In this document: positions 15,868-64,000 of the stretch, piece after piece
Position numbering within the stretch: the first letter of the stretch is position 1
How the letters are laid out: each line of letters opens with the position of its first letter
From: a virus
Taxonomy: Duplodnaviria > Caudoviricetes
DNA length: 64,000 nt
Reading direction: 5' to 3' (one strand)
Virus record (IMG/VR): IMGVR_UViG_3300020388_000010
Position numbers and translations under genes: made by a program
The notes under the pieces: model-generated
What the model was told of the DNA's origin: nothing
Databases searched by the model: none
Seen by the model: only the letters and a program-made list of their open reading frames with translations

Positions 15868-16515
15868 ATGAAATTAATATCTGAAGCACTTGAAAATGTA
15901 AAATTTCTTACTGAAGAAGACGATAAAGGTAGCAAAAATTACAAAATTCAAGGTGTATTTATGCAAGGTAACATAAAGAACCGTAATGGTAGAGTATATC
16001 CAACAGATGTTTTGGAAAATGAAGTAAAAAGATACTCTGAAAAATTCATTGAAAAAAATCGTGCATATGGTGAACTTGGACACCCAGAAGGCCCAACGGT
16101 AAATCTGGATAGAGTTTCACATATGGTAACTTCTTTACAAAGAGATGGAGATGATTTTATAGGTGAAGCAAAAATTATGAACACACCAATGGGTAAGATT
16201 GTAAAAAATATCATAGATGAAGGTGGCACACTTGGTGTTTCTTCTAGAGGTATGGGTAGTCTTGAACAAAAAAACGGTGCAAATTATGTGAAAAAAGATT
16301 TTATGTTGGCAGCTGCTGCTGATATAGTTGCAGACCCCTCTGCACCTAAAGCTTTCGTAAACGGAATTATGGAAGGTAAGGAATGGGTTTGGAATAATGG
16401 ACTTCTAAAAGAAGTTGAAATAAGTGACATAGTTGAAACTATAGAGAGTTCTGTGCGTAAAAAACTTCCAAATGTGGAAGCTCTTGCGTTTGCAAAATTT
16501 CTTAAAAAGTTATAA
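15868..16515 (+). CDS. gp21: Prohead core protease gp21
   Basis: KNRNGRVYP, GELGHPEGPTVNLDRVSH, GVSSRGMGS, DIVADPSAPKA. Confidence 0.97.
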   Translation: MKLISEALENVKFLTEEDDKGSKNYKIQGVFMQGNIKNRNGRVYPTDVLENEVKRYSEKFIEKNRAYGELGHPEGPTVNLDRVSHMVTSLQRDGDDFIGEAKIMNTPMGKIVKNIIDEGGTLGVSSRGMGSLEQKNGANYVKKDFMLAAAADIVADPSAPKAFVNGIMEGKEWVWNNGLLKEVEISDIVETIESSVRKKLPNVEALAFAKFLKKL

Positions 16516-16518
16516 AAC

Positions 16519-16526
16519 TATAAATA
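16519..16526 (+). promoter_or_regulatory. Late promoter for gp22/gp23
   Basis: TATAAATA upstream of the gp22 RBS. Confidence 0.7.
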
Positions 16527-16557: not shown

Positions 16558-17805
16558 ATGTCAGAACTAGATAAGACTATTGAGGAGTTGGAAAAAGAAG
16601 TCGTAGCGGAACTAGATGAAGCCAACGGCAAAAAACCTAATTCTACTGGTGGTAAGGCAGACCCTATGCCAAAAATGAAAGATGGTGAAAAACCAGAAGA
16701 TGTAGGTGGCCCAACGCCCGAAAAAGATGCGAATATGGTTGGAAAACCAGACGCCGCAAAAAAAGTTAAAAAGGACACTTCTGCACCCACTAAAGGTGCT
16801 GTTCCTCCAGAAAAGGCAGATACTATTAAAGAAGCCGAACACGAGGACGATGAAGAACCTAAAATGAAAAAAGATGATGAAGAAGAAGATGATGATGACG
16901 ATATGGACGAACAAATATCTAAATTATCTAAACTTTCTAAAACTGAACTCGTTAATCAATATACCAAAGGTATGACTAAATCTGCACTTGCAAAAGGTAT
17001 CGTAGAGTACGGTAATGGTATGAAAAATGCTATGAAAATGCACGGTAAAGATGACGAAAAGAAAAAGAAAATGCCTGAAAGTGTTGATGTCAGAAAAGAT
17101 GTTGATGCACTTTTAGAAGGTGAAGATTTTTCTGATGAGTTTAAAACTAAAGCTGAAACAATATTTGAAGCTGCAGTATCATCTAGAATTTCTGAAGTTA
17201 AAGAAACTTTAGAAGAACAAAAAACTCAAGCTATTGAAGAAGCAAAAGAAGATATGGTTGACAAAATTGACTCATATCTAACTTATGTTACTGAAGAGTG
17301 GAAGAAAGAAAACCAACTTGCTATTGAAAGAGGTCTAAAGGGAGAAATCGCTGAAGACTTTATTACTGGTCTTAAATCTTTATTTGAAGACCACTATATT
17401 GATGTTCCAAACGAAAAATATGACATTCTTGAAGCACAGACTAAAGAAATTGAGGAACTAAAAGCAAAGGTAAACGATTTAATGGAACAAGATAAATCAG
17501 CTAAGAATAAAGTTGGTGAACTTGTTCGTGAATCATTAATTTCTGAAGTATCAAAAGATTTAGCAGAAACAGAAAAAGAAAAATTTAATTCTTTGACTGC
17601 TGATGTTGAATTTTCTGATGAAGAATCTTTTAAAGAAAAACTATCTACTTTGAAAGAATCATACTTCCCTTCAGAGAAAAAAGTTGAAGAAGTATTATCT
17701 GAAGACGCTGAAAGTCCTAAGACTATTGAAGCAAACTCAGATATAATGGCGGCATATACGGCTGCAATTAACAAAACCCATAAAAGGGCAGTAAATAAAT
17801 CGTAA
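16558..17805 (+). CDS. gp22: Prohead core scaffold gp22
   Basis: EFKTKAETIFEAAV, YLTYVTEEWKKENQLAIERG, FITGLKSLFEDHYI; long charged N-terminal extension. Confidence 0.93.
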   Translation: MSELDKTIEELEKEVVAELDEANGKKPNSTGGKADPMPKMKDGEKPEDVGGPTPEKDANMVGKPDAAKKVKKDTSAPTKGAVPPEKADTIKEAEHEDDEEPKMKKDDEEEDDDDDMDEQISKLSKLSKTELVNQYTKGMTKSALAKGIVEYGNGMKNAMKMHGKDDEKKKKMPESVDVRKDVDALLEGEDFSDEFKTKAETIFEAAVSSRISEVKETLEEQKTQAIEEAKEDMVDKIDSYLTYVTEEWKKENQLAIERGLKGEIAEDFITGLKSLFEDHYIDVPNEKYDILEAQTKEIEELKAKVNDLMEQDKSAKNKVGELVRESLISEVSKDLAETEKEKFNSLTADVEFSDEESFKEKLSTLKESYFPSEKKVEEVLSEDAESPKTIEANSDIMAAYTAAINKTHKRAVNKS

Positions 17806-47073: not shown

Positions 47074-47434
47074 TACCTCAAAAAGATATTTAGGTAATAT
47101 CGCAGATAGTTATGTTTTCTTAGAAAACAAATCAAAATCACAACAAGATTGCATTGGTATTAAAGGTGGTAGATATGATGGTGTAGTATTCAAGTTTGGA
47201 AAGATTGCATCAGTACAAGACTCACAAAACCAAGGCTTAGAAGCAGTTCTTAAATTTCAATATACAGTTGTTGATTACAACGGATTGAAAGAAGAACATT
47301 TGAATATAGATTTCAAAAATCTTCTAGGTGATATACTTTGTGATATAGTAGATAAACATTATTCAGAGGGGGTAATTAGTGGTACAAAATCAAACGATAG
47401 AAGTAACGACACTAAGTCAGTTATTGAACAATGA
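47039..47434 (+). CDS. Hypothetical protein in the T4 gp40 position
   Basis: Between uvsX and gp41; [27 protein letters not shown]. Confidence 0.55.
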
Positions 47435-49557: not shown

Positions 49558-49585
49558 TTGACAAATTTCAATTTATAAATATAGT
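49558..49585 (+). promoter_or_regulatory. Overlapping early (TTGACA-16-TATAGT) and late (TATAAATA 49574-49581) promoters
   Basis: Both consensus elements in the short intergenic gap. Confidence 0.6.
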
Positions 49586-49613: not shown

Positions 49614-50852
49614 ATGTTAACATTTAAAGAATTTTTATTAGAAGATAAACAAGGCAAAAATCTACACCTTGAACACTTGGAAGATGAGATACTCAACTTT
49701 GGTGTCGGTGGGGGTAGAGGTGCAATTAATTTTCTACAATCATTAAGAGATATGTTATCTGGGTCATCTAAAGGTTCAGTTAATATGACTGTTAAGTGGG
49801 ACGGGGCCCCTGCTATATTTGCAGGCATTGACCCATCAGATGGCAAGTTCTTTGTCGCAAAGAAATCAGTATTTAATGTAAATCCAAAGTTGTATAAAGA
49901 AGAATCAGAAATAGATGTTTCTGGTGATTTAAAAGACAAGTTTGCAATCGCATTAAAAGAATTTAAAAAATTAGGAATTAAAAATGTTATTCAAGGTGAT
50001 TTAATGTTCACCAAGAAAGATTTAAAAAAGGAGAAAATTGATGAACAAACCTTTATTTCTTTTCAGCCTAACACTATCGTTTATGCTGCACCTATGGGTT
50101 CTGAACTTGCTGGACAAATCTCTAAATCACAAATTGGAGTTGTATGGCACACCACCTATGAAGGCGATAATTTGCCATCAATGTCAGCAAAATTCGGTGT
50201 GGATATAAAAGGATTAAAAAATATAGATAGTGTATGGATGGATAATGCTTCATTTAAAGATGTTTCTGGTAAGGCAACATTTACTCAATCAGAAACAGAA
50301 GAAGTAACATCATACTTATCAACAGTTGGTAAGATTTTTAGACGAATAAATTCATCATTGTTAGAGAAGTTTATTAGACTTCAAAATTCAATGGTAGGGA
50401 ATTTGTCTGGTGCTTCTCTGAAAACATATAATAATTTAAAAGTAAGAGAAGGACAAACTATCAAAAATGTAAGACAACACGCTCAAGGATATCTTGACCA
50501 TATTGCAAACCATTTTGATAAGAATAAGGACAAAGTAAAGACACTCGGAGCAAAAGAAAAGATTGAAAGAAATAAGAACGAGTATCTGAGAGAGTTTAAG
50601 AAACATATCAGAAATATAGAAAATGTCATTTCTTTTCAACAAGCCCTTGTGGCCGCAAAGATGTTAATTGTTAAAAAGTTGAATTCAGTTAAACAACTAA
50701 CGGACACCTTTATAAAAACAAAAAATGGATTTAAGGTTACAAATCCAGAAGGTTATGTTGCAATTAATAATGATGGTAAGGCCGTAAAACTTGTTGATAG
50801 AATGGAGTTTAGTTTTAATAACTTTACTGCAATAAAGAATTGGGATAAGTGA
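49614..50852 (+). CDS. Ligase/nucleotidyltransferase-like protein with capsid-targeting-like N-terminus
   Basis: MLTFKEFLLE; KWDG (motif I-like), QGDL, EGYV, VKLVDR. Confidence 0.6.
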   Translation: MLTFKEFLLEDKQGKNLHLEHLEDEILNFGVGGGRGAINFLQSLRDMLSGSSKGSVNMTVKWDGAPAIFAGIDPSDGKFFVAKKSVFNVNPKLYKEESEIDVSGDLKDKFAIALKEFKKLGIKNVIQGDLMFTKKDLKKEKIDEQTFISFQPNTIVYAAPMGSELAGQISKSQIGVVWHTTYEGDNLPSMSAKFGVDIKGLKNIDSVWMDNASFKDVSGKATFTQSETEEVTSYLSTVGKIFRRINSSLLEKFIRLQNSMVGNLSGASLKTYNNLKVREGQTIKNVRQHAQGYLDHIANHFDKNKDKVKTLGAKEKIERNKNEYLREFKKHIRNIENVISFQQALVAAKMLIVKKLNSVKQLTDTFIKTKNGFKVTNPEGYVAINNDGKAVKLVDRMEFSFNNFTAIKNWDK

Positions 50853-50899
50853 CTTGACAAACATATTTAAATATAGTAATTATAAAGTAGAGGAATGTT

Positions 50900-51997
50900 A
50901 TGAAAACATTTAAACAATTTATAAACGAACAAAAGGAGTATTTAATTATGGGTGACACAAAAAAAGCATATGATATGGAAAGAGTGATTGTATCTGCAGC
51001 TGGAGGTGAAAACTTCGTTTCAGACTTGATTCCTAATTCAGAAAAAGTTGGTAAAAAAATTATTAATGATTTAAAATTAACTGGTAAATCGTATTTTCCT
51101 AAAAATTCTTATCCAGCAACTGATAAATGGGCAAAATACTTTTTGCCTGATAAACCTAAAGGTTCAACATTGACACCTAAAACTGATTTTATAATCGGTA
51201 ACAAAAAGATATCTTTAAAAACTGGTGATGCAGTATTAATGTCTGGTGAAAGAAAAGAAGCAACTGCTACTTTTTATAATGCAATGGATAATACAAAAAC
51301 ATTGGATGATGCAGTTAAAAGATTAAAAAAACATATAGACAATATGTTACCATCAACAGATATGACAAAATATAATATAAAAGGTAATAAAACACAATTA
51401 TCAAAAGCAGGTAAATTTGCAGAGATAGAAATACTAAAAAAAGCAGATGAAGCTCATAAAGCATTTAAAAAAGATATGAGAGATGTATTTATAAATTCAG
51501 AAGGATTTGGTAGAGAATTTACTTTTGAAGCAATGACTGGTAAAATTAAATTTGGTGATAATGATGGAACTGCTGACCATTTTTTAGTAACAGATTATGA
51601 TGGTAATGCAACTTTACATAAAGTAACTAAATCATCAGACGAATATGTTTCTAAAATAATGAAATATGTTAAACCAGATGCAACTTTTAAAACAACACAA
51701 AGAACTTCTGCTAAATTAAAATCACCATCTAATAAAAAAGGTGGTACTGGTTATTACACCTTTTGGTCTGCTTTGAAGGTCGGTGTTAAAATGATACAAG
51801 AAGAAGAAATAAAAAATGCAGATTTGTTAAATGAGAGTATTTTTGATATAATAAAAAGAACTTTTAAAAAAGCGATTAACTGGATAAAAAGTTTTTTTAA
51901 AAAAATTTATAGTTTTGTTTCTAAATCTTATAAATCATTGATGGAATTTATGGTTTTAGAACCAGTTGTGAAATATAATAATATGGTTAAGTGGTAA
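50900..51997 (+). CDS. Putative PD-(D/E)xK-like nuclease with capsid-targeting-like N-terminus
   Basis: MKTFKQFINE; E..., TPKTDF..ISLK; amphipathic C-terminal helix. Confidence 0.5.
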   Translation: MKTFKQFINEQKEYLIMGDTKKAYDMERVIVSAAGGENFVSDLIPNSEKVGKKIINDLKLTGKSYFPKNSYPATDKWAKYFLPDKPKGSTLTPKTDFIIGNKKISLKTGDAVLMSGERKEATATFYNAMDNTKTLDDAVKRLKKHIDNMLPSTDMTKYNIKGNKTQLSKAGKFAEIEILKKADEAHKAFKKDMRDVFINSEGFGREFTFEAMTGKIKFGDNDGTADHFLVTDYDGNATLHKVTKSSDEYVSKIMKYVKPDATFKTTQRTSAKLKSPSNKKGGTGYYTFWSALKVGVKMIQEEEIKNADLLNESIFDIIKRTFKKAINWIKSFFKKIYSFVSKSYKSLMEFMVLEPVVKYNNMVKW

Positions 51998-52020
51998 TGA
52001 AAACATTTAAACAATTTATA
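50900..52020 (+). repeat. 24-bp direct repeat ATGAAAACATTTAAACAATTTATA at 50900-50923 and 51997-52020
   Basis: Identical copies encode the N-termini of two consecutive genes. Confidence 0.85.
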
Positions 52021-52317
52021 GAAGCACCAAGAATACCTAGAAAGAAAGGTCAACCAGCAGGGTCTGATAAACATTCTGATTTATATACAGATGAGAATCC
52101 TAAAGGTACGATACACGGACTAGGATTTAAAGATGAAAAGACTGCAAGGGCAAGTGTAAAGAAAATAAATAGTAGTAATAGAAAACACGCACATAAAATA
52201 CAAGCTGCGATTGCAATGGAACAAAGAGCAAAAGTTGCTGGTAAAACAAAAGAGGCTGCAATCTATCGTGCTTATATAGAGAAGATGAAAAAGAAAACAA
52301 AGGAAATGAACAAATGA
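51997..52317 (+). CDS. Basic hypothetical protein with capsid-targeting-like N-terminus
   Basis: MKTFKQFIE; HSDLYTDENPKGTIHGLGF. Confidence 0.7.
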   Translation: MKTFKQFIEAPRIPRKKGQPAGSDKHSDLYTDENPKGTIHGLGFKDEKTARASVKKINSSNRKHAHKIQAAIAMEQRAKVAGKTKEAAIYRAYIEKMKKKTKEMNK

Positions 52318-52775
52318 AGACATTTACAGAGTTAAAAAAGTATGTTATGGATTTGGATAACGATGTAAGAGATATGTATTCTGTTGATCAAGAAGTTGTT
52401 GAGATTATGGATAAAGAAAATCTTGATGAAGTAACTGCAATTTCTAAGTTTATACAAAGAGCAAGAAAAGCAGGAAGAAAGTTAAGAGCTAAGTCTGCAT
52501 TGTTTTTAAAGAAAAGAATGAAATCTCTTAAAAGGTATAAAAAACCAGAAGCAATTAAAAGAATTGCAAGAAAGAAAGCAATAGATTTGTTAGTGCAAAA
52601 GATATACAAACTTCCATATAGAAGTTTACCTATGCAGAGAAAAGCACAGATAACTCAAAACTTTTTATCTAAACCGAATGTTAAAAAGAAAATTAATAAG
52701 ATTGCGAAGAAACAAGAAAGAAAAGTAAGAATTGCAGACAGAGAGAGAATTGCAAAAATGAGAGCAAAAAAATGA
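52314..52775 (+). CDS. Very basic hypothetical protein, putative head-internal
   Basis: MKTFTELKK; acidic leader to ENLDE, then K/R-rich domain. Confidence 0.65.
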   Translation: MKTFTELKKYVMDLDNDVRDMYSVDQEVVEIMDKENLDEVTAISKFIQRARKAGRKLRAKSALFLKKRMKSLKRYKKPEAIKRIARKKAIDLLVQKIYKLPYRSLPMQRKAQITQNFLSKPNVKKKINKIAKKQERKVRIADRERIAKMRAKK

Positions 52776-52972
52776 TGGAAGATGGCCCTATGAAAGAACA
52801 CATTAATAGAAGTAAAGAAGGTGTAATTGTTGCAAAGTATATCACTTACACTTTAAAAAATGGTATGTTGGTAAAAGATGTTAGTACGAGAAAATATATG
52901 AAATCATCTAAAGGTGATTACATAGATACATCTAGCAGTGAACCAATAGTAGAGGTATCAAATGAAACTTAG
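52772..52972 (+). CDS. Small hypothetical protein
   Basis: Coupled 66 aa ORF. Confidence 0.55.
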   Translation: MMEDGPMKEHINRSKEGVIVAKYITYTLKNGMLVKDVSTRKYMKSSKGDYIDTSSSEPIVEVSNET

Positions 52973-55900
52973 AGAGTTATTAGAAGAAGAGGTATCAAGA
53001 AAAGATATAAATGATTTAGAAAAATTTGCAGATAGAATATTAAAAAAATATGGAGTTGATATAGAATTTACTAAACACTTTGTAGATAGAATGAATGACC
53101 CAAGAAATAGTCCAGAGATAAAAGTATCTGAACTACAAAGGTTCTTTAAAAAGATTCAAAAAAACAAAGCGAGAAATATAATAAACAACCCAGACATACA
53201 AGCTGTTTTAAAAGATATGTCAACTAATTTAAATTTACCAGTTGTTATTAAAACAAAAGGTAATGAGATAGAAGTAACAAACAAGACTATTATGAGAAAA
53301 CCAGATTTTAAAACACCTAATAAGGTTATTAAGTACGAGTCATTTAGAACTTTTTCAGAAGCAACTGAATCAGTTGTATTTACATTTGGTAGATTTAATC
53401 CACCAACAACTGGTCACGAAAAACTAATAGAGAAAGTCAAGAAGATTGCTGGTGGTGATGACTATTATATATTCCCATCACATTCTCAGAACAATAAGAA
53501 AGACCCTTTACCACTTGCAAAGAAAGTTGCATATATGAGAGATATGTTTCCAAAACATAAAAGAAACATAATCGCAAATAATAAATTAAAAACAGTTTTA
53601 GATATTGCAGTTTATTTTCACCAACAAGGTTATGTAGAATTAAATATGGTGGTGGGTTCGGATAGAGTTGCAGAGTTTAAAAAACTGTTGACAACATATA
53701 ATGGTCAAGAAAAAAGACACGGTTTTTACGATTTTGATACTATACAAATTTTTAGTGCTGGTGAAAGAGACCCAGATGCAGAAGGTGTTACTGGAATGAG
53801 TGCATCTAAGATGAGAGCAGCTGCAACCAATAATGATTATGATACATTTCAAAAAGGATTACCACGAGGTTTTAAAAATGGTAATCAATTATTCAAGGAT
53901 GTGAGGAAAGGTATGAACTTAAAAGAGAATTCAAAATACTCTGATGAAGAAATTGAAAGAGATTTATATGTCAGAGGTGCAATCTATCAAATCGGAGATT
54001 TGGTAGAAAATATAAATGATGGAACTAGTGGTGAGATAATTAGAAGAGGTACTAACTATGTGCAATACACAGATGGTGAAAATGTGCATAAAGCATTTCT
54101 TCATTCAATAAAAGAAACAAAAAAAATAACAAAAACAAAACAAGACTCAGATATAAAAGACAGTCCAGGCTCTGAACCAGCAAAGTATTATGCAAAAGGT
54201 GTAGGTGATAAAAAAGGAATGTCTGTATCTACTAAAAAGGCAAGAGATGCCCATTTTACAAAGGGAGCGAAAATGGACGATGACAACCCAAATGCATATA
54301 AACCAGCGCCTGGTGATAAAGATAAGAAAACTAAACCTTCACAATATACTAAAAAGTTTAAACAGATGTATGGTGAAGTTTCAGAAAAAAGAATAGACCC
54401 AGCAGATATTGATGATTTTGCAACAGATGATGATATTAAAGCTGCAGATAAAAATATTATGATGCAGTTAAGAAAGTCTGTATCTTTACGAGGTAATTTT
54501 CCAGTACAATTTATGGATAAGAAGAAAGTAAAAGTTTCATCTAAGATTGCACAAGCAGTTCAATCAAAATATGATTCTATGAAAAAAGCATCTGATAAAG
54601 AAAAATTTCAGAGTAAAATTTCTAAATCATATAAAGATTTATTAAGTGCGTTGAAAGAACAACTTAATATTAATGAACAACCAAAACACGAAATTACAGT
54701 AGGTGATTACACAACTAAGTTTTTCTATATGTGTGGTTCTGCACAAACAACTATGAAAAAACACGCAGATAAAGAAGGTGCAGAAGAACTTACTCGTATG
54801 CAAGATTTATTTTATAAAATGGAAAAAGATGCAATGGACTCTGGTGGTGCAAGTGATGAACAGAAAAAGAAATCACAAATACTCTATGATAAAATAATTG
54901 CAAAAGCAGACGATATAGGTATTAAGAATGAAGTTGACAAATATATGAAACTTCATTTGACTTCAATGTTAAATAATAAACCTAAACTAGGATTTGGTAG
55001 AACAGATATTAGTGAAAGTCTTTGGAAAAACATTCATAAAAAAAGACAAAGAATAAAACAAGGTTCTGGTGAGAAGATGAGAAAACCTGGCGAGAAGGGA
55101 GCTCCAACACCAGCACAATTAAAAAGAGCAAAAGGTGAAGAAACTGATATAAAAGAAATGCCCTATTATAGAAAAATCTATGATAAGATACATCAAATGG
55201 TGCATCCTAAAGGTTATGATAGGATACTTAAAATGTACATACAAATGCATAAACAAGGACATAGAAATCCTGCTCAAGCATTAGGACAAATGGTAAAAGG
55301 TGTTAATGCAAGAGATGTTGCATATTACATTAATGGTTTAGTAAAAAAAGGTAAATTACCATCTGACCTTGCAGCTAAAGTTGATTTTGAAATAGACGAA
55401 TCGGTAAATCTTAATGAGAAGATTGAAGGTTTAGTTAAGAAATCACAACAAACTGGTGTTCCTTATGGTATTCTAAAAAAGAGTTATGATAGAGGACTTG
55501 CAGCTTGGAAAACTGGACACAGACCAGGCACTACTCCACAACAATGGGCATTTGCAAGAGTGAACTCAATGTTAACTGGTGGTAAAGCAGACCCAGATTT
55601 ACAAAAACAAGCAAGAGCATCTAAAAAGAAAAAGAAAAAAGAATCATATGAAATAGGAGAACCTTATGCTAGACATACATTTGATGTTACACCAGGCCAA
55701 GACTATGAACAGTCAGTCAAGTCAAAGGTTGCGAGTGAATCCAACATACAAGACTGGTTTGAAAGACCGTCTACTAGAAAAGAGTATCAAGAAAGATACA
55801 AAGATGAGTGGGAAGAAAAACTCCAAGAAACCTATAATCTTATGAGGTCAAAGATTTCTAAAGATGATTTAGAAGATAAATATATAGAGAAACTAGAGAT

Positions 55901-56177
55901 AGTAGAATCTGAATATCAAGGTCGTAAAGTTAAGTTAAATGACCCATTTAGACTACCTAGTGGAAGTAATAAAAAATTTGGTGTTTATGTGAAAAATGAA
56001 AAAGGTAATGTAGTTAAAGTGACTTTCGGCGACCCAAATATGGAGATTAAGAGAGACGACCCAGGCAGATTAAAAAGTTTTAGAGCAAGACATAATTGTG
56101 ATAATCCAGGCCCTAAAACAAAAGCACGATACTGGAGTTGTTTTCAGTGGAGAAAAGGTGCAAAGGTTGATAATTAG
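52962..56177 (+). CDS. Multidomain polyprotein containing a cytidylyl/NMN-adenylyltransferase-like domain
   Basis: VVFTFGRFNPPTTGHEKL, VVGSDR, SAGERDPD, MSASKMR, plus many small domains separated by xLxE/IxE sites. Confidence 0.75.
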   Translation: MKLRELLEEEVSRKDINDLEKFADRILKKYGVDIEFTKHFVDRMNDPRNSPEIKVSELQRFFKKIQKNKARNIINNPDIQAVLKDMSTNLNLPVVIKTKGNEIEVTNKTIMRKPDFKTPNKVIKYESFRTFSEATESVVFTFGRFNPPTTGHEKLIEKVKKIAGGDDYYIFPSHSQNNKKDPLPLAKKVAYMRDMFPKHKRNIIANNKLKTVLDIAVYFHQQGYVELNMVVGSDRVAEFKKLLTTYNGQEKRHGFYDFDTIQIFSAGERDPDAEGVTGMSASKMRAAATNNDYDTFQKGLPRGFKNGNQLFKDVRKGMNLKENSKYSDEEIERDLYVRGAIYQIGDLVENINDGTSGEIIRRGTNYVQYTDGENVHKAFLHSIKETKKITKTKQDSDIKDSPGSEPAKYYAKGVGDKKGMSVSTKKARDAHFTKGAKMDDDNPNAYKPAPGDKDKKTKPSQYTKKFKQMYGEVSEKRIDPADIDDFATDDDIKAADKNIMMQLRKSVSLRGNFPVQFMDKKKVKVSSKIAQAVQSKYDSMKKASDKEKFQSKISKSYKDLLSALKEQLNINEQPKHEITVGDYTTKFFYMCGSAQTTMKKHADKEGAEELTRMQDLFYKMEKDAMDSGGASDEQKKKSQILYDKIIAKADDIGIKNEVDKYMKLHLTSMLNNKPKLGFGRTDISESLWKNIHKKRQRIKQGSGEKMRKPGEKGAPTPAQLKRAKGEETDIKEMPYYRKIYDKIHQMVHPKGYDRILKMYIQMHKQGHRNPAQALGQMVKGVNARDVAYYINGLVKKGKLPSDLAAKVDFEIDESVNLNEKIEGLVKKSQQTGVPYGILKKSYDRGLAAWKTGHRPGTTPQQWAFARVNSMLTGGKADPDLQKQARASKKKKKKESYEIGEPYARHTFDVTPGQDYEQSVKSKVASESNIQDWFERPSTRKEYQERYKDEWEEKLQETYNLMRSKISKDDLEDKYIEKLEIVESEYQGRKVKLNDPFRLPSGSNKKFGVYVKNEKGNVVKVTFGDPNMEIKRDDPGRLKSFRARHNCDNPGPKTKARYWSCFQWRKGAKVDN

Positions 56178-56185
56178 GAAAAGTT

Positions 56186-57241
56186 ATGACAACATATAGA
56201 AGAACAATGACAGAGATGTATCAACAAGTTAGGGAAAGAACACTGACTCCAAATGAGTTGAAACGCAGAGAAGAGATTGCAAAAGATTTACCTTTAAAAG
56301 ATTTTGAAAAAAGATATGGTAAAGAAAAAGGTATGCAAGTTAAAATGGCAGTTGCAACTAAAATGGCAAAAAAAGAATCTTTTGAACTTGATGAAGTATC
56401 AATGACGAATCCTCAGTCATTGTCATTAACAACAAAAGATGCCCTTGTTATAAGAGCAAAACAACTTAGAGAAAAGGGACTTGGTTTGAAAGCAAGAATA
56501 GAAATTGCAAATAAAATTGAAATTAAATCACCATCTTTATTTAAGTATTATCGTGAATTAGAAAAAAAAGGTATTAAAAAGGGGCCTGAAGTTAAGAAGT
56601 TTGATAAACAACTTATGTCTGCACTTGCAAAGAAGTTTGGACAAGATATTGCAAAGAAAACAGAGAAGGCACTAAAAGAAGAACTTAATGAAGATGGACA
56701 TAGTGATGTTCCATCAATGATTAGAAAATGTAAAACAGTTATTGAAGATGCAAATGAGATTATGAGTAAACTAAACTCTATGGACAAGGAAGGTTCACTA
56801 CCAACTTGGTGGACTAATAAACTTGCAGTTGCATCAAACAGTATGAATAAAATGAGAGATTATATTCTGAACCCTATTGAAGAAAGTGTTATTATGGAAA
56901 AAGAAGGTGATTTAGAGGATATGAAAAAAGTTGTTGAAGAACTTAAAGGTGCATCTAAAATGCATTTAGGTCAAGCAGTTCGTATTGATAAATTAGATTT
57001 AGAAAACAAAACACTAGATACTATTTGTGATGAATTAAGAGGTGCATCTAAAATGCATTTAGGCCAATCCAAAAGAGTTCAAGCACATATTAATATGATG
57101 GAAGGTGATGCTACTGATGCAGCCAAAGAATTGATTAATAGAGAAAAAGAGAGAATGAAAGATAAACACGACACAATTATGCAAAGAGCAAAAATTAAAG
57201 ATGTTACTGATGCGAGTCGTGAGAAACAAGGAGAAAATTAA
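56186..57241 (+). CDS. Modular putative head-internal polyprotein
   Basis: Domains separated by ESFELDE, EELNE, ESVIME; duplicated EL(K/R)GASKMHLGQ. Confidence 0.65.
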   Translation: MTTYRRTMTEMYQQVRERTLTPNELKRREEIAKDLPLKDFEKRYGKEKGMQVKMAVATKMAKKESFELDEVSMTNPQSLSLTTKDALVIRAKQLREKGLGLKARIEIANKIEIKSPSLFKYYRELEKKGIKKGPEVKKFDKQLMSALAKKFGQDIAKKTEKALKEELNEDGHSDVPSMIRKCKTVIEDANEIMSKLNSMDKEGSLPTWWTNKLAVASNSMNKMRDYILNPIEESVIMEKEGDLEDMKKVVEELKGASKMHLGQAVRIDKLDLENKTLDTICDELRGASKMHLGQSKRVQAHINMMEGDATDAAKELINREKERMKDKHDTIMQRAKIKDVTDASREKQGEN

Positions 57242-58020
57242 TGACAAAGTATTTTGATACAAAAAATGGAACTTTGGAAAATGCCGTGTTATCTGTTTAC
57301 GAGAAAAAATTAGACCCAGTAAATAAAAACGCTGTAAAGAAAAAGTTTGACGATAGAAAAGATAAAGATATTGATAATGATGGAGATGTGGATTCAACAG
57401 ATAAATTTCTTCACAAAAGAAGAAAAGCAATCACTAAAGCGATTGAAAAAGAAGGTAATATGTTTACTATGAAACTTGCACAAGCAAGAAAAAATGGTGA
57501 CGATGAAATGGTTGTTTCTGGTAAAAAATATAAAGTAAAAGATGTTGAAGGAACTGTAAAGGAGTTAAAAATGTCTAAAAATGAAAACGCATATTTTAGA
57601 GTTGATACTATGAGAGATGCTCTAAAAAAAGTATGGGGTGATGCAGTAAAAGAATCTGTTGAACCTAAAAAAGAATCTCTAGAAGAAAAGAAACTAGAAG
57701 ATTCACCTAACCCAGCTAACCAATGGCATATGTGTGCAAAAAATGTAGTACACGAAAAATGGGGTAGGGGTAATACAATACACTCTATGCACGCCGACCC
57801 AGATAAAAAAGGTATGGTTGAATGGTATGATATTTGGTTTCAACACGGAATTGAAAAACAAGTTCCAACTAAAGATTTGGAAATAGTTCACGAAGAAGGA
57901 CACGAAAACCATAAGAAAGATAAAGATAAAAAACTTATGGGTAAAAAAATGCATAAGACTATGACTGGTAAACCAATGTCAGATATTGAAACTTCTAAAG
58001 AAGAAAAAAAATCTGCATAG
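57241..58020 (+). CDS. Modular putative head-internal protein with DxDxDG motif
   Basis: DKDIDNDGDVDSTD; ESLEE linker; His-rich C-terminal domain. Confidence 0.6.
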   Translation: MTKYFDTKNGTLENAVLSVYEKKLDPVNKNAVKKKFDDRKDKDIDNDGDVDSTDKFLHKRRKAITKAIEKEGNMFTMKLAQARKNGDDEMVVSGKKYKVKDVEGTVKELKMSKNENAYFRVDTMRDALKKVWGDAVKESVEPKKESLEEKKLEDSPNPANQWHMCAKNVVHEKWGRGNTIHSMHADPDKKGMVEWYDIWFQHGIEKQVPTKDLEIVHEEGHENHKKDKDKKLMGKKMHKTMTGKPMSDIETSKEEKKSA

Positions 58021-58022
58021 GG

Positions 58023-58050
58023 TTGACAAGTTACGATAGTATGTTATAAT
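58023..58050 (+). promoter_or_regulatory. sigma70-type promoter
   Basis: TTGACA-16-TATAAT with TG extension. Confidence 0.7.
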
Positions 58051-58073
58051 AACAGAATGAAAAGAGAGGTAAA

Positions 58074-58601
58074 GTGAAAAATTTTTATGATGTTTATAAT
58101 TCTACATTAAGTGAGAAAGAGGAATTACCAACACTATTTTGCGATATGGATATGGTGTTGGTTGATTTTTTAGGAGGTGCCGATAAAGAAGTCGGTCAAA
58201 CCTTTGTAAAAATGGATAATGCAAAAAGATGGGCAACTATTCACAAGAATAAATCCTTTTGGGAAAACTTAGAATGGATGCCTGGAGCAAAGAGATTATG
58301 GAGTTTCGTTAATAAATATGGTTCACATATATTATCTGCATATTCAACAAAAGATAGTAATTGTGTGCCTGGTAAAATGAAATGGTTGAGAAAGAATTTG
58401 AGTTTAACACAGAGAAGCCGTATACATTTAGTAAGGCGTTCTCAAAAACAAGATTTTGCAATGACAAACAATAAACCTAATGTTTTAATTGATGACCACG
58501 CTAAAAATATTAAAGAGTGGAAATCAAAAGGTGGTATCGGAATACATCATATGTCTGTGAGTACAACATTAAACGAATTGAAAAAATTAGGTTATAAATA
58601 G
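58074..58601 (+). CDS. HAD-family 5'(3')-nucleotidase-like phosphatase (GTG start)
   Basis: FCDMDMVLVDF, FWENLEWMPGA, ILSA, GKMKW, VLIDD, WKSKGGIGI. Confidence 0.85.
   Translation: MKNFYDVYNSTLSEKEELPTLFCDMDMVLVDFLGGADKEVGQTFVKMDNAKRWATIHKNKSFWENLEWMPGAKRLWSFVNKYGSHILSAYSTKDSNCVPGKMKWLRKNLSLTQRSRIHLVRRSQKQDFAMTNNKPNVLIDDHAKNIKEWKSKGGIGIHHMSVSTTLNELKKLGYK
58593..58600 (+). promoter_or_regulatory. Late promoter
   Basis: TATAAATA upstream of structural gene 58626. Confidence 0.7.
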
Positions 58602-58625
58602 TTATAAAACTATAAGGAGAAAACA

Positions 58626-60146
58626 ATGAGTTTATGGAGTATGAATGATGGCTCCGCTTTATCTGGTACTCACACTTACACGAATGGAAGTGCGATTGTA
58701 CAAGCTAATGCAAGTGGAGCATACAAAACCGAAGTAAAAATCGGTGATGTAGTTACTACAGCTGGTGGAGAAAAAGTGAGAGTAAAAGACCTTACACCAC
58801 CTAGAACAGTTGCTACATCTGCTGTAAACGCAAGTAATGAAAGAATTACCATTACTTCACACGGATATACTGCAAACACACCACTCACATATAGTGCAGC
58901 TGGTGGAACTGCAATCGCTGGAATCACAGACGGACAAATCGTATTTGTTAAAACTGTTCACGATGCAAACACAATAGATGTATCTGCAACAGAAGGCGGT
59001 TCAGTAATTAATATAACTGGAACTGGTAATAATTCACAAACATTTATTGGTGAAACAAATACTGGTATGACATTAACATCTGATTTTGGTGGAAGCACAG
59101 AAAGTGGTGTTGCCGCAACTGTATCAAGACCACCAATAAACGGACACGGTGGAACTATTGATAGCACCGTATTTGGTATAGATGAAGGTGAATCTGTTGC
59201 TGGTGTTGATAATGTGACTGATATTGCATTAACATCAACTACTGGTGCAAGATATGTACAAGCACCAACTATTACTGTTGCAGGGCCAACTGCAAGAGTT
59301 CTTACAACTGCAAATGTTTCACTTGCAAACGATACATTTACCATTACAGGCCACAATATGAGAACTGGTACATCTATAACTTATAATAGTCAAGGTGGAA
59401 CTAATCTTGCACAAAATAGTGGTAACATTACAGATGATACTGAATTATTTGTTATTCGTGTAGATGCAGACACTATTAAGTTAGCAAGTTCACTTTCTAA
59501 TGCAGAAGCTGGTACTGCACTTGATATGACTGGTGGTTCTGGTAATGTTGGTAATAACTCACAAACATTAACTGGTACTACTGCAACTGCAACTGCAACA
59601 GTTTCTGGTGGAGCTGTTTCTGCAATTACTGTAACAGCAGTAGGTTCTGATTATCAATCTACACCAGCTGTAACAGTTGAAGCACCAAAAATGACAATTC
59701 CAACTGGTAATGTAAATGCTGGTACTAATGTAATCACATTTACTGGACACGGACTAACAGATGCTGACCAAATCACTTACAACCAAGTAGGTGGTGGAAC
59801 TTTAATGACCAATGTAACTAACGGACAAACTGTATTTGTTAGAGATAAAACTGACGATACCTTTAAGATTGCAGCTACTGAAGGTGGAACTGCGATTAAC
59901 ATTGGTACTGGTCATAGTGCTCAAACATTTACTATTGTAACTGGTGCAACAACAGCAACTGCTGTAGCTTCAACTGGTTTAGGTAATGACGGTGATAGTA
60001 ACACCACAGAACTTAGCCATGTAGGTTGGGTTAAGAAAACAGTAGGTACTGGTGGTCGTGCTGGTAGAGTTCAATATGAAACTCTAGTTGCTGCTTCAAG
60101 TATTTCTGGTGATGCTGCTGATGATATCGCACTACCAGATAGCTAG
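58626..60146 (+). CDS. Virion structural/decoration protein with three repeated beta domains
   Basis: Repeats ITITSHGY/FTITGHNM/ITFTGHGL; C-terminal HVGWVKKTVGTGGRAGRVQYETLVA. Confidence 0.7.
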   Translation: MSLWSMNDGSALSGTHTYTNGSAIVQANASGAYKTEVKIGDVVTTAGGEKVRVKDLTPPRTVATSAVNASNERITITSHGYTANTPLTYSAAGGTAIAGITDGQIVFVKTVHDANTIDVSATEGGSVINITGTGNNSQTFIGETNTGMTLTSDFGGSTESGVAATVSRPPINGHGGTIDSTVFGIDEGESVAGVDNVTDIALTSTTGARYVQAPTITVAGPTARVLTTANVSLANDTFTITGHNMRTGTSITYNSQGGTNLAQNSGNITDDTELFVIRVDADTIKLASSLSNAEAGTALDMTGGSGNVGNNSQTLTGTTATATATVSGGAVSAITVTAVGSDYQSTPAVTVEAPKMTIPTGNVNAGTNVITFTGHGLTDADQITYNQVGGGTLMTNVTNGQTVFVRDKTDDTFKIAATEGGTAINIGTGHSAQTFTIVTGATTATAVASTGLGNDGDSNTTELSHVGWVKKTVGTGGRAGRVQYETLVAASSISGDAADDIALPDS

Positions 60147-60169
60147 AATCTAAATTATAGGAGTATATT

Positions 60170-60406
60170 ATGTCTTTAGAATTAAAAGATATTGAAACGA
60201 GAAAACAAGAATTACAAGTTGAATTATCAAAGGTAGAGAATCAACTTGTAGAGGCACTCAAAAAAGTAGAGTCGTTGAAACAAACTAAATTCTCTATCGC
60301 TGGTGCCATAGCGCTTTGTAATGAATTCGGTGAGAAAACTGATGTCGGAAAAGATGAAAATTCTGATGCCGACAGTAACATTCCCCACACTATTGCTGGG
60401 GTTTAG
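60170..60406 (+). CDS. Coiled-coil hypothetical protein
   Basis: AGGAG RBS; heptad pattern. Confidence 0.6.
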   Translation: MSLELKDIETRKQELQVELSKVENQLVEALKKVESLKQTKFSIAGAIALCNEFGEKTDVGKDENSDADSNIPHTIAGV

Positions 60407-60423
60407 ACCATAGGAGATAAAAT

Positions 60424-60888
60424 ATGGCTGATAAGAAAATTACTGCGTTAACAGACTTAGGGTCTGGTATCGCAACTGCTGATTTATTTCACATTGTAGA
60501 TGACCCAACTGGTACACCTATCAATAAGAAAATTTCAGCTGCGAATGTATTTAACTATATTCCAACATTTATTGCAACTAACAGTACAGAAGCACTAACT
60601 AATACTTCTACTGCTGTTTCAGTTTCTACTGCTGTTTCAACAGTTGATTCATCTGGTGGTGCAGTAACTGTAACACTTGCAGCTGGTGTAACTGGTCAGT
60701 TGAAGACAATTATTTGTACTACTGCTGGTAATAACATCACTGTAACTCCTGCCGCCACAGTTGGTTCTGGTACTACTGTTGTACTAGATGCCGCTGGTGA
60801 ATCAGTATCATTAATGTATACTGGTACTGCTTGGGCTGCAGTTGCAACTTCATCTTTCGCAACAAGTATTGCAACAGTCATTCAGTAA
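60424..60888 (+). CDS. Putative virion structural protein
   Basis: [25 protein letters not shown]; Thr/Ala/Val-rich beta domain. Confidence 0.65.
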
Positions 60889-61061
60889 TGTCTGACTTAA
60901 AGATGAAAAGTAAAAAGATGGGTGACCATCTTGATACTATGTTGAAAAAATATAAGAGAGGTGAAAAAATAGGTTTCACCGCTCTTGCAAGACTAAAGGC
61001 ACGAGGTTTAATTCCTCGTGCTGATGGTTCAAAGAAAAAAGGTAAATTAGGGAAATCATAA
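60888..61061 (+). CDS. Small basic hypothetical protein
   Basis: ATG overlaps upstream TAA; GEKIGFTALARLKARGLIPRADG. Confidence 0.6.
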   Translation: MSDLKMKSKKMGDHLDTMLKKYKRGEKIGFTALARLKARGLIPRADGSKKKGKLGKS

Positions 61062-61492
61062 TGATAGATTTTAAACAGTATATTACTGAACTAAAGGGAA
61101 CAAAACCCGCTAACTCTAATGCACAACACGACTCCGACCACGATATGGTTGATGTGTCTGATGATGGTGTTGTTAGAAAACTTAATTCATTTTTGGGTTG
61201 TATTGCCGAAATGGATCATATGTTACCAGAACAAACTATTAGTGTTGTGAGAAGAAGACTTGCAAGTATTGGATTAACATTTCCAAATATTGATGTAGTA
61301 GAAGATTCTGGAAACATATCTGCACCGTTAACACAATTCGGTGGTAGATTTGGTAAAGACATTGACACACCTCACAATGAGTTTGTTAATGATGATGGTA
61401 TTTCACATAGAGTTGAAGGTGGTCGTTCCATTAATTTTGTTTATGAAAAAAAAGAAAATGGAAAATTCAAGGTCACTGCCGAAATTAAATAA
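61061..61492 (+). CDS. Hypothetical protein with capsid-targeting-like N-terminus
   Basis: MIDFKQYITE; LTQFGGRFGK. Confidence 0.65.
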   Translation: MIDFKQYITELKGTKPANSNAQHDSDHDMVDVSDDGVVRKLNSFLGCIAEMDHMLPEQTISVVRRRLASIGLTFPNIDVVEDSGNISAPLTQFGGRFGKDIDTPHNEFVNDDGISHRVEGGRSINFVYEKKENGKFKVTAEIK

Positions 61493-61854
61493 TGTTTGAG
61501 AAAATAACTGTTGATAATGTTATGATGTATGCGATGAAACATTATAATAATCCTCAAGGGGATAATGAAAAAGAATTTCTTGATGATATGAAGAGATTCA
61601 AATATATTAAGAGATTGTTGAGAAAATATCAAGACAATGGGCCTTTGAAAGAACGATTGATTTTAAATCACATAATTGTTTTAAATAATGTCTTTGGTGC
61701 AGATGCGTGTTCAACACTTTTATTATTTAAATTAGAAACTTCGTTATGGAAATATATAAAACCATTTATGGAATTTTTAAAAATTCTTCCAGAATGTGAG
61801 TTAAAAAATATAGAGAATGACGAAAAAGTAGAAAGTATTTTAAGGAATATTTAA
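61492..61854 (+). CDS. Conserved T4-like marine phage protein
   Basis: YAMKHYNNP, EFLDDMKRFKYIKRLL, ERLILNHIIVLNNVFG. Confidence 0.75.
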   Translation: MFEKITVDNVMMYAMKHYNNPQGDNEKEFLDDMKRFKYIKRLLRKYQDNGPLKERLILNHIIVLNNVFGADACSTLLLFKLETSLWKYIKPFMEFLKILPECELKNIENDEKVESILRNI

Positions 61855-62492
61855 TGGGAACTGCGATAGATTTATTTGTAACTTATAGGTTTATTAAATT
61901 ATTAGTAACACCTTTTGAAAAAACTGATGCATTTAAACTTGGTATTATTAACGAAAAGGGTTTACGACAAGTCGTGCCTGGAACAACAAAACCAACACCT
62001 CTTTCAACAATCAAAGAAAGAAATGCATATACTGTTCTCCACAAGTTAGTATTCAATATTAAAAGAATTTTTGCAAGAGTGCCTGGACTAGGTTCTAAAG
62101 TTGGAACTTATGCAGCTGCACTTTTTTTATTAAAGGACACATTCAAAGAGGGTGTTGACCCTAAAATGTTTGAAAGAGAATTTTTAAAGTTTATAAAAGA
62201 AAATGATATTAAACTAGATGACACGATTACTGAAGAAGTTGATTTAGTTGATGGAAAATTACCAAAAGGTGTTTATAAACTGTCAAATGATATTATAAAA
62301 GATGATGATGAAGACATACCATTACTAAAAAAAGATGATGATGTGGAAACATTAGAGGACACATTACCATCTGATACAGTATTAGGTGTTCCAGTTTTTG
62401 CAGTCCTACATACTAATAGTAATAGTAAGATTTTTGTAAGTATGGATGATATTGAACCAGTATCAGTAGAAGATGCATTAGGAGAAATTTAA
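61854..62492 (+). CDS. Conserved T4-like marine phage protein
   Basis: DLFVTYRFIKLLVTPFEKTDAFKLGII, YTVLHKLVFNIKR, YAAALFLLK. Confidence 0.75.
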   Translation: MGTAIDLFVTYRFIKLLVTPFEKTDAFKLGIINEKGLRQVVPGTTKPTPLSTIKERNAYTVLHKLVFNIKRIFARVPGLGSKVGTYAAALFLLKDTFKEGVDPKMFEREFLKFIKENDIKLDDTITEEVDLVDGKLPKGVYKLSNDIIKDDDEDIPLLKKDDDVETLEDTLPSDTVLGVPVFAVLHTNSNSKIFVSMDDIEPVSVEDALGEI

Positions 62493-64000
62493 TGGATAAG
62501 AAAAAATATGTAAGAGTAGACCCTTTCACTGGATTCCCAGAGAAAGATGTAAAAGAAGATGCACCGACAACATCTACTGCTGGTGTTGCAGCCACTGGTG
62601 ATGACCCAACAGTTGTTATGAAAAAGAAAAAGAAAAAATTATATGATGGTAGAACATCTATTGCAAAGAAATTTGTTGAAAGAATATTAAAACAAAGAGA
62701 AGCAAGGAGAGTTGCAGAAGAAGTTGAACTTGAAGAAAAAGTAAAACAACCTAGACAATTAATTAATCCAAGTAAAGAAGCTATGGTTGTAAAAAATAAT
62801 AAAGTTATCGTAGTTGATAAAAAAGATTTAAAACAATACACATCAAAAGGTTGGTCTCTTGCAGAAGATATTGAACTTGATGAAATGCGAGGTATATATG
62901 TTGTTCGTAATGATAATGGTAGAATGATTGCAAAAAATAAAAACAGAAATGCGATTGATAAAGAGAGAAAAAAGTACGAAACACAAACTGGTAACAAAAC
63001 TACAATGAATATTGAAAAAGAACCAGTTCCAGATTTAAAAGAAGGCACTGAACTTGAAGAGGCACTAAAACCAAAAGATAAAAAAGTTGTAGATGCATTT
63101 TATGATGGTAAATCTATGAAAGGTGATACACTATCCACAGATGGTAAAAAACTAGAAAAAAGTGGTTTGGGTGCTCAAACTATTGCAACTTCATCTGGTG
63201 GCAAATTTAAGGTTGTTGCAAAGATGGACGGAAAACATACTCAGTCAGTAGTTTCATATATTAAAAAATCATTTCCTAAAAATGTAGTAGAAGAGATTAC
63301 AGAAGGAACTATGGCTAGTGGTCTTTTTTCAAATAACCCAGAAACATCAAACAAATCTGGTTATGAATTAACTAAGTTTTTTAAGAAAAAACCTAATGCA
63401 AAACAAGCATATGATTTTGTAGATAGACACATTCCAGATGATGAATTAGGTGATGATATAGCTGCACTTGCTGGTGAATTAGATGATGCACCAGGCAGAT
63501 TGAAAGACTTTCCATATAAAAAACAAAAGAAAGCATATAGTAAAATTGACCCAAGAAGTGTTGTCTTAAATAGACTTGCAGATTTTACTGATGACAAAAA
63601 TGCAATGTTGTTAGTTAAAACACTTATGAATATGGGTGTTAAACCAATTAAATTAGGTACTGGTAGGGCTGGTAAAGGTGAGTATGACCCTATAAAGATG
63701 AAAATTAATCCTAGTAAAATAGATGCAATCTTAAAAAAATTTGGTGTGTCAGACCCCAAACAAATTACATTCAAGGAAGAAACAATGGAAATAACAGAAG
63801 AAGTTATGACACTTAAAACAAAAGATAGTGTTATGGGACTTAAAGTATTTAATGGTGCAAAGGGTTTAGGTTTAAAAGCTGCACTCTTAGGAAAATATGT
63901 AAGAGTTAAAGGTAGTAAAAAACAAGTAAACGATTTTGGAAGAACAGTTATTGGTAAATCATCAATGGGTAGTCCTACTGAATTAAATCCCCCTCAACTA
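62492..64000 (+). CDS. Large modular polyprotein, open to window end (absent from ORF track)
   Basis: AGGAG RBS; MDKKKYVRVDPFTGF...; no stop in 503 codons; linkers EEVELEE, EDIELDE, EGTELEE, VEEITE, ETMEITEE. Confidence 0.8.
   Translation, partial: MDKKKYVRVDPFTGFPEKDVKEDAPTTSTAGVAATGDDPTVVMKKKKKKLYDGRTSIAKKFVERILKQREARRVAEEVELEEKVKQPRQLINPSKEAMVVKNNKVIVVDKKDLKQYTSKGWSLAEDIELDEMRGIYVVRNDNGRMIAKNKNRNAIDKERKKYETQTGNKTTMNIEKEPVPDLKEGTELEEALKPKDKKVVDAFYDGKSMKGDTLSTDGKKLEKSGLGAQTIATSSGGKFKVVAKMDGKHTQSVVSYIKKSFPKNVVEEITEGTMASGLFSNNPETSNKSGYELTKFFKKKPNAKQAYDFVDRHIPDDELGDDIAALAGELDDAPGRLKDFPYKKQKKAYSKIDPRSVVLNRLADFTDDKNAMLLVKTLMNMGVKPIKLGTGRAGKGEYDPIKMKINPSKIDAILKKFGVSDPKQITFKEETMEITEEVMTLKTKDSVMGLKVFNGAKGLGLKAALLGKYVRVKGSKKQVNDFGRTVIGKSSMGSPTELNPPQL

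Follow-up and report, generated by a model that had tools for sequence, protein, structure and literature searches.

The distal part of a 64,000-nucleotide (nt) stretch of virus DNA (IMG/VR record IMGVR_UViG_3300020388_000010; Duplodnaviria, Caudoviricetes), referred to here in its whole length as the window, encodes four protein chains whose modules are almost certainly shuffled at repeats in the DNA coding for the linkers between them. The phage is a T4-like marine myophage of the pelagimyophage/Melnitz type, and weak DNA matches of the window are to Methylophilales phage Melnitz and Pelagibacter phage HTVC008M. The four open reading frames (ORFs), all on the + strand, lie at 52962-56177 (1071 residues), 56186-57241 (351 residues), 57241-58020 (259 residues) and from 62492 to the window end (503 residues, 3' open), as described in an initial annotation, which proposed that they are packaged polyproteins of small basic domains whose E-[LI]-x-E linkers are cut by a head protease of the T4 gp21 type. 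We consider it probable (about 0.6) that the chains are packaged in the head and cut at their joints. A more comprehensive model, to which we would give slightly less than even odds, holds that in abundant marine T4-like phages a head-targeting leader and a protease site make up a universal in-frame cassette joint, that ~20-nt repeats recombine the modules, and that the head protease resolves the chains into injected proteins.

Exchange of modules at linker repeats

Whole modules are inserted, deleted or swapped at linkers between near-identical relatives, which shows that the ORFs are, as first proposed, chains of independent modules. When relatives were aligned, module content was found to vary, and the breakpoints of gain, loss and exchange fell at linkers. 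The homologue in the syntenic locus L003, for instance, is 98% identical to ORF 52962 over 958 residues and is without exactly residues 569-681, which lie between two joints, and the ORF 62492 homologue of the same locus differs in the module that follows linker 2 and carries one more module before linker 5. Another relative, L006, is without the ORF 62492 module between linkers 1 and 2, and the DNA at its junction starts with 5' sequence of one of these linkers and finishes with 3' sequence of the other. This hybrid of two linker copies agrees with the suggestion that linker DNA could act as microhomology, as does the repetition of that DNA: the linker-coding repeat, GAAGAAGTTGAACTTGAWGAA and variants, is ~20 nt long, occurs within and between genes, and spans ~21 nt in relatives. 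The 12-nt core TGAACTTGAWGA, as previously listed, is found on the + strand at 56383, 62725, 62872 and 63049 and nowhere else; shuffles predict 0.06 occurrences. The Leu codon is CTT in 4/4 of these linkers, a codon that makes up 22% of the Leu codons in the window, and the two other EL[DE]E sites of the window use TTA and CTA.

A word-based search returned >4000 relatives of ORF 52962, with lengths of 687 to 1071 residues among those listed, and pairwise and multiple alignment of the family located changes of architecture at residues 8, 133, 472, 572, 685, 732 and 982, each of these insertion or deletion edges being a hydrophobic-x-Glu site. For ORF 62492, an exhaustive profile-free search found 484 relatives in metagenomes; 64% of the homology termini lie <=8 residues from a linker (17% expected), a count that is dominated by one very common module. 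One ORF 62492 module occurs in >100 proteins, at any position, and nearly all copies are preceded by E-E-V-x-L-x-E. Since the relative P0024 carries in one protein the N-module of ORF 56186, one ORF 62492 module and 500 C-terminal residues of ORF 52962, the four ORFs draw on a single pool of modules. Furthermore, the N-module and middle module of ORF 56186 recur in fusion with ORF 52962 and ORF 62492 modules in P0024, P0072, P0153 and P0269. Pfam searches of 100 module-sharing relatives gave 13 scattered families, mostly single weak hits, with no peptidase or ADP-ribosyltransferase domain among them. In P0072, which is 81% identical to residues 1-875 of ORF 52962, an SLT_2 lytic transglycosylase domain replaces the C-terminal modules; such domains are typical of proteins acting on the cell wall during infection.

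The linkers derive from N-terminal leaders that were kept when genes fused, because separate-gene forms carry the same peptides as leaders. Melnitz encodes the modules of ORF 52962 in separate genes that each start with their own short leader, and the cytidylyltransferases of Melnitz and cyanophage S-SM1 begin with a peptide that stands inside the chain of the window phage as a linker. Another ORF 62492 module is preceded, depending on the relative, by a T4-like leader, by a second (type-B) leader or, in the window, by an acidic linker, and the E-E-V-x-L-x-E before the commonest module includes the end of the second leader type. These comparisons show a history of both fusion and fission of the modules.

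Joints and domains of the chains

Every linker peptide quoted in the initial annotation was located where expected, and the E-[LI]-x-E motif is both present and enriched. As a definition of the joints it proved too narrow, the working motif being hydrophobic-x-Glu, with Leu, Ile, Phe or Tyr at the third position before the proposed cut (P3) and Glu at the first (P1). With 300 shuffles per protein as the reference, ORF 62492 has 5 occurrences of E[LI]xE (0.3 expected, z 9.2) and ORF 52962 has 4 (0.4 expected, z 5.4), and the latter also has 16 occurrences of [LI]xE (7.5 expected, z 3.2). A like excess of [LI]xE is seen in the phage's own scaffold protein (18 against 6.8 expected), which would be a natural substrate of the protease and serves as an internal control for the motif. 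Because the shuffles, the breakpoints and the degree to which joints are conserved all speak against it, chance composition was rejected as the cause of the motif.

Nine joints of ORF 52962 were followed through the family, conservation being the percentage of 40 members that keep hydrophobic-x-Glu in an alignment reaching down to 56% identity; all coordinates are on the + strand, and a slash marks the predicted cut. The first joint, F-S-E/A (residues 131-133, 53352..53360), is kept in 96% and is identical to the N-terminal leader that the separate genes in Melnitz and S-SM1 carry. L-K-E/N (320-322, 53919..53927; 100%) is followed by the low-confidence segment 323-326 of the structural model, and I-K-E/T (383-385, 54108..54116; 95%) by the disordered stretch 386-419. 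Y-G-E/V (470-472, 54369..54377; 100%) has the leader-like K-K-F-K-Q-M before it and is a breakpoint in P0034 and P0083, while I-N-E/Q (570-572, 54669..54677; 96%) and I-S-E/S (683-685, 55008..55016; 100%) form the left and right edges of the 113-residue module absent from L003. Breakpoints in P0032 and P0050 coincide with I-K-E/M (730-732, 55149..55157; 100%), L-N-E/K (817-819, 55410..55418; 100%) ends the low-confidence segment 807-819 directly before the DUF5824 module, and I-V-E/S (980-982, 55899..55907; 81%), a further breakpoint in P0050, precedes the C-terminal beta module (phrog_7595). The motif is kept at the nine joints in 81-100% of the 40 members, and its six occurrences within domains are kept in 37-56%, though flanking identity is similar or higher. 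Judged from this alignment, conservation of the protease-type sites at the joints greatly exceeds that of the sequence around them.

The chain encoded at 52962..56177 consists of a leader, an N-module, a nucleotidyltransferase, an SH3-like barrel and ~7 more modules including DUF5824. Its nucleotidyltransferase module (residues 134-322, 53361..53927, + strand) matches PF01467 at 24.6 bits (cutoff 21) and phrog_395 at E 8.8e-72, and the family scarcely varies at residues 149-152, which read T-T-G-H. Foldseek aligned the modelled domain at probability 1.00, with target template-modelling (TM) scores <=0.70, to adenylyltransferases of nicotinamide or nicotinate mononucleotide (NMN/NaMN) and of phosphopantetheine, and a phmmer search of the module against PDB sequences gave no match. 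The module is a predicted enzyme of the HxGH nucleotidyltransferase type, with a Rossmann-like fold and an N-terminal (T/H)xGH, close in fold to NMN adenylyltransferase (NMNAT) and phosphopantetheine adenylyltransferase (PPAT). The description of the chains as small basic domains fits most modules, with isoelectric points (pI) of 9.0-10.4 except for residues 323-385 (pI 4.8) and 573-685 (pI 7.0) of ORF 52962; it does not cover this 190-residue enzyme module. Pfam searches of the four ORFs returned only CTP_transf_like and DUF5824, and Pfam and PHROGs together name no module of ORF 62492 or ORF 56186. The ORF 52962 model resolves the nucleotidyltransferase, the SH3-like barrel, a helical module and DUF5824, and 13/16 of its [LI]xE sites lie in or beside low-confidence segments (49% expected), an overlap that is weak evidence alone because the model is poor (mean predicted local distance difference test score, pLDDT, 57.5). 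Residues 686-723 (55017-55130) form a 38-residue, very basic module (phrog_16028) that is a tiny stand-alone gene, with 67-73% identity, in T7-like podophages of Pelagibacter, Prochlorococcus and Synechococcus.

ORF 62492 (62492..64000) comprises the first 503 residues of ~600, the full length being judged from the syntenic L003 homologue of 627 residues, and holds six modules. Its linkers, again on the + strand, are E-E-V-E-L-E-E with the coding repeat (linker 1, 62716..62737; low-confidence segment 77-84), E-D-I-E-L-D-E (linker 2, 62863..62884), E-G-T-E-L-E-E (linker 3, 63040..63061; segment 181-189), which stands before the widespread A-L-K-P-x-D-K-K module, I-T-E/G (linker 4, 63296..63304; segment 269-274), around which homology ends pile up at residues 261-280, and I-T-E/E (linker 5, 63791..63799; segment 426-434), just before which the extra L003 module is inserted. 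The model (mean pLDDT 73.8, predicted TM score 0.37) has six separate small domains, and 4/5 linkers coincide with inter-domain segments of pLDDT <50, linker 2 being modelled as helical at moderate confidence (pLDDT ~75). In the models of ORFs 62492 and 52962 alike, the predicted folds stop at the linkers and none spans a joint, as the modular proposal anticipated. The peptide DVKE, which had been listed among the linkers, sits instead in the disordered N-terminal stretch and does not separate folded modules. In Foldseek, no PDB structure matched the ORF 62492 model at E <= 0.001; the weak matches that did appear, KH- or ferredoxin-like and ~60 residues long, are not relied on. A tblastn search with ORF 62492 against 50,697 phage records gave no match. 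Residues 1-50 (62492-62640) run from an aromatic-T-E-V-x-P-F-T-G start through an A-G-T-G-D-D stretch to a Lys run; dozens of proteins that differ elsewhere conserve this N-terminus despite its predicted disorder, and it may represent a third type of address tag.

The two shorter chains begin with leaders of other types. That at 56186..57241 has a second leader type, M-T-x-Y-R-x-x-M, and the joint E-L-D-E at 56387-56395 (+ strand). A 40-nt direct repeat within it, 88% identical between its copies at 56935-56974 and 57028-57067, encodes two copies of a 13-residue peptide ending K-M-H-L-G-Q. The chain at 57241..58020 has a third leader type and an Asp-rich conserved core. Comparison with its L003 counterpart revealed insertions and deletions at x-K-E and L-E-E sites, and in the Melnitz and S-SM1 homologues an E-E-V-E-x-x-E linker directly follows the core. 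The core itself (residues 41-71, 57361-57450) reads D-x-D-x-D-N-D-G-D-x-D-x-x-D-K followed by a basic helix, and the Asp-rich stretch, which looks like a calcium-binding loop, is invariant across the window phage, Melnitz and S-SM1 gp191.

It is possible that such chains are loaded into the head and stay whole, at most losing an N-terminal leader, with linkers that serve as flexible acidic spacers and recombination sites. T4 Alt, a 70-kDa head protein, is a model for whole chains of this kind. The predicted helix at linker 2 of ORF 62492 suits this explanation, the evidence for packaging of homologues (see below) is silent on internal cuts, and there are polyvalent proteins, the N4 virion RNA polymerase among them, that are packaged without processing (PMC5512222). 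However, P3 and P1 of the gp21 rule are kept at joints in 81-100% of relatives while the flanking linker residues vary, and E-L-D-E/A is also present in the phage's own scaffold, a homologue of T4 gp22, which gp21 cuts into several fragments (PMC9026906). Furthermore, an exposed L/I-x-E would be hard to shield in a protease-filled prohead, gp21 needing few determinants (PMC9026906). Chains that stay whole are, in our estimation, unlikely.

Leaders, virion proteins and the proposed route

Cleavage at the joints presupposes a protease of the right kind, and the phage encodes, by profile matches, both a gp21-type prohead protease (15868..16515, + strand; phrog_207 head maturation protease, E 4.9e-79) and a gp22-like head scaffold protein (16558..17805, + strand; phrog_237, E 7.9e-74), followed by the major head protein (17841-19181). 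The N-terminus of the protease contains I-S-E then Ala, and the second site of the scaffold is E-L-D-E then Ala, identical to the linkers. In T4, gp21 cuts after L/I-x-E and breaks gp22 into several fragments, internal proteins are directed to the head by a 10-residue leader, the capsid targeting sequence, and the first 10 residues of internal protein III (IPIII) suffice for head incorporation (PMC9026906). Read from NC_000866, the T4 leaders are M-K-T-Y-Q-E-F-I-A-E then Ala for IPII and IPIII, and M-K-T-F-K-E-F for IPI. The T4-like leader pattern is found in five window genes, none of them outside the interval 49.6-61.1 kb and one of them beginning M-K-T-F-K-Q-F-I-N-E, and the commonest leader equals that of IPI at six of its first seven residues. 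Such leaders stand on the neighbouring genes 49614, 50900, 51997 and 61061 and on the separate cytidylyltransferase genes of Melnitz and S-SM1, and ORF 52962 starts with a looser version, M-K-L-R-E-L-L-E. The likeness ends with the leader: Pfam and PHROG searches returned no match to IPI, IPII, IPIII or Alt.

Evidence that proteins of this kind reach the head comes from S-SM1. Mass spectrometry of its purified virions (Table S8) detected the cytidylyltransferase T4-GC190 at 25 peptide counts, together with T4-GC1453, 1454 and 1455 at 12, 10 and 7 counts (Sullivan 2010, PMC3037559). In the S-SM1 record the detected products correspond to genes 188, 190, 191 and 192, which lie together shortly after gp41, the position that the cluster has in the window. 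Both gp190, the cytidylyltransferase, and gp192 have the leader at their start, and two of its three detected neighbours resemble window genes: gp191, detected in virions at 10 peptide counts, shares the invariant Asp-rich core of ORF 57241, and gp188 weakly resembles ORF 50900.

These virion data bear on two further explanations. One is that the chains stay in the cytoplasm, unpackaged, as ordinary multidomain accessory proteins encoded in a hyperplastic region, their shared N-termini representing a start preference or recombination cassettes and their linkers fusion scars. The cluster does sit in the replication module, between helicase and primase, one module is found in podophages, and linker-mediated shuffling of accessory genes is known from the PeSL cassettes of T4-type hyperplastic regions, which are intergenic promoter-terminator units (Arbiol et al. 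2010, PMC2839356). The cytidylyltransferase, moreover, is missing from the virion proteomes of S-PM2 and Syn9, though both phages encode it (PMC3037559). Set against this are the four products of the syntenic S-SM1 cluster in purified virions, and the agreement of the leader with that of IPI, an internal protein with the tested type of head-targeting leader. T4 internal-protein genes likewise lie away from head genes, and a mere fusion scar would not retain P3 and P1 in 81-100% of relatives, all of which makes a purely cytoplasmic role distinctly improbable. The other explanation is that the chains are auxiliary, scaffold-like proteins of the prohead core, comparable to T4 gp67 and gp68, that are chopped and expelled before DNA packaging. 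Like scaffold, they have many cut sites per chain, and T4 core proteins are cut into several fragments, most of which leave the head (PMC9026906). However, the modules are folded basic domains (pI 9-10.4) plus one enzyme, whereas the scaffold is acidic (pI 4.6) and helical; their content differs between near-identical phages, unlike that of an assembly factor, and homologues are present in mature virions. A core function of this sort is therefore hardly probable at all.

Packaging and cleavage at the joints, the reading that we prefer, has difficulties of its own. Besides the helical linker 2, the poor ORF 52962 model and the failure to detect the cytidylyltransferase in S-PM2 and Syn9 virions, these include a possible structural role of the conserved hydrophobic-x-E at domain starts. 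The leaders of ORFs 56186, 57241 and 62492, conserved as they are, are not T4-like and are without experimental precedent, and the phiM12 protein that carries the N-module is annotated as hypothetical only, the gene marked as virion structural being its neighbour. Finally, we know of no gp21-type protease in T7-like podophages, so at least some modules, such as residues 686-723, work outside this route.

From the evidence taken together we infer cleavage of the chains, their packaging in this phage, their ejection and the functions of the modules, in steps that may be ordered as follows. Single cargo genes would start with a short leader ending in hydrophobic-x-Glu, the commonest of which resembles that of T4 IPI. 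In-frame fusion of neighbouring cargo genes would leave the downstream leader as a short acidic linker, and ORFs 52962, 56186, 57241 and 62492 would be the outcome, with independently folding, mostly basic modules of 45-190 residues. The chains would enter the prohead core and be cut after each joint Glu by the gp21-type protease (15868-16515) at head maturation, and the freed small basic proteins and one NMNAT/PPAT-like nucleotidyltransferase would remain with the DNA and probably exit with it at infection. The linker-coding DNA would serve as an in-frame recombination site, such that deletion, insertion and exchange of modules keep the reading frame. If true, this would amount to an integron-like system at the level of protein modules, quickly changing what is delivered into SAR11, OM43 or cyanobacterial cells ahead of the DNA.

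Known systems and the surrounding gene cluster

The T4 internal proteins are textbook examples of proteins injected with phage DNA, IPI blocking a restriction enzyme, and are known as single small proteins. In the window, the same address-and-cut logic appears to be multiplexed, with many unrelated modules behind one address that are exchanged between phages at the cut sites. Likenesses to IPI, IPII and IPIII (and Alt) include the 10-residue leader of neighbouring genes, which ends in hydrophobic-x-Glu, a basic and variable content, homologues of gp21 and gp22, genes placed away from the head genes, and homologues in virions. Unlike the T4 proteins, several cargo units here share one chain and the leader is reused as an internal joint, the cluster has two further leader types, the joint-coding DNA is repeated and marks recombination breakpoints, and the proteins are without sequence homology to the mature T4 proteins.

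Three other systems invite comparison. In the giant phages phiKZ, 201phi2-1 and SPN3US, ejection or inner-body proteins are cut by a gp21-like protease at S/A-x-E and the products are ejected (PMC9026906). There, as proposed here, cleavage follows the Glu of a three-residue motif in many head proteins, frequently at more than one site per protein, and products stay with the DNA, but the cuts mostly remove propeptides of single proteins and have not been described as releasing unrelated modules, P3 differs, and neither shared linker DNA nor module shuffling at cut sites is reported. The polyvalent proteins, chains of 2-15 unrelated domains for which packaging and delivery alongside the DNA are predicted and which are sometimes processed into pieces (Iyer et al. 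2017, PMC5512222), resemble the window proteins as long chains of unrelated domains predicted to travel with DNA. Their domains are enzymes of the conflict type (ADP-ribosyltransferase, methylase, nuclease, helicase), often with an embedded metallopeptidase for self-processing, whereas here the head protease would do the processing in trans, at joints of one uniform kind, and Pfam found none of the polyvalent domain types in the four ORFs or the 100 module-sharing relatives. As in the PeSLs, short conserved sequences flank accessory genes, serve homologous recombination and shuffle modules harmlessly; unlike them, the repeat here is coding, in frame, and doubles as leader and presumed protease site.

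Our literature search found no paper describing a multiplexed, cargo-chain form of the T4 internal-protein system and none linking the capsid targeting sequence with cyanophage, pelagiphage or marine phages, and these genes go unmentioned in the pelagimyophage genomics paper. The family is large, with the relatives counted above, and is found in phages of some of the sea's most abundant bacteria. If the model holds, it would define a large, almost wholly uncharacterised pool of effectors of the first minute of infection, explain the published oddity of a cytidylyltransferase inside cyanophage virions, and provide a natural template for packing T4-type capsids with several proteins.

The region from 49.6 kb to the window end is probably a variable capsid-cargo gene cluster of this phage. 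A UvsX-like recombinase (46033-47073) and a DnaB-like helicase (47379-48785) lie upstream of it, and a 2OG-Fe oxygenase gene also precedes it; the cluster follows the gp41 helicase and continues beyond the window end, and gp61 primase comes after it in relatives, as in the syntenic loci L003 and Melnitz. Its first leader-bearing gene (49614..50852, + strand) encodes a DUF6267 protein (PF19782, E 2.6e-98), a homologue of S-SM1 gp189 whose capsid-targeting-like leader was recognised by the pattern scan. The following + strand genes encode a leader-bearing basic protein (50900..51997; leader at 6/7 first residues as in IPI, weak match to S-SM1 gp188), a small basic leader-bearing protein (51997..52317), and a very basic protein (52314..52775, pI 10.6) with a leader-like start. 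The product of 51997 is a free module here and is fused in frame upstream of the cytidylyltransferase in P0033 and P0034. Further downstream, an acidic protein with a leader (61061..61492, + strand) has a Melnitz homologue with a leader of the same type.

A T4-type late-promoter-like sequence, TATAAATA, stands at 49574..49581 (+ strand), 33 nt before gene 49614, and also 39 nt before the scaffold gene (at 16519). The sequence is not above chance in the window (9 observed, 11.3 expected), so only its placement before 49614 is noted, as suggestive. A further copy, at 58593-58600, lies 33 nt 5' of gene 58626-60146, which encodes a 506-residue Gly/Thr/Ala-rich repeat protein inside the cluster with weak matches to giant baseplate-wedge proteins. 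A 211-residue minus-strand ORF at 62413-63048 is unlikely to be a gene and is regarded as a shadow of the Lys/Glu-rich frame of ORF 62492. The cluster also contains a 5'-3' deoxyribonucleotidase gene (58074-58601; phrog_2643, E 4.3e-30), which is conserved in Melnitz and is without a leader. Two adjacent genes of the cluster start with 24 identical leader-coding nt (50897-50933 and 51994-52030), and a single crossover between these copies would cleanly delete or insert gene 50900.

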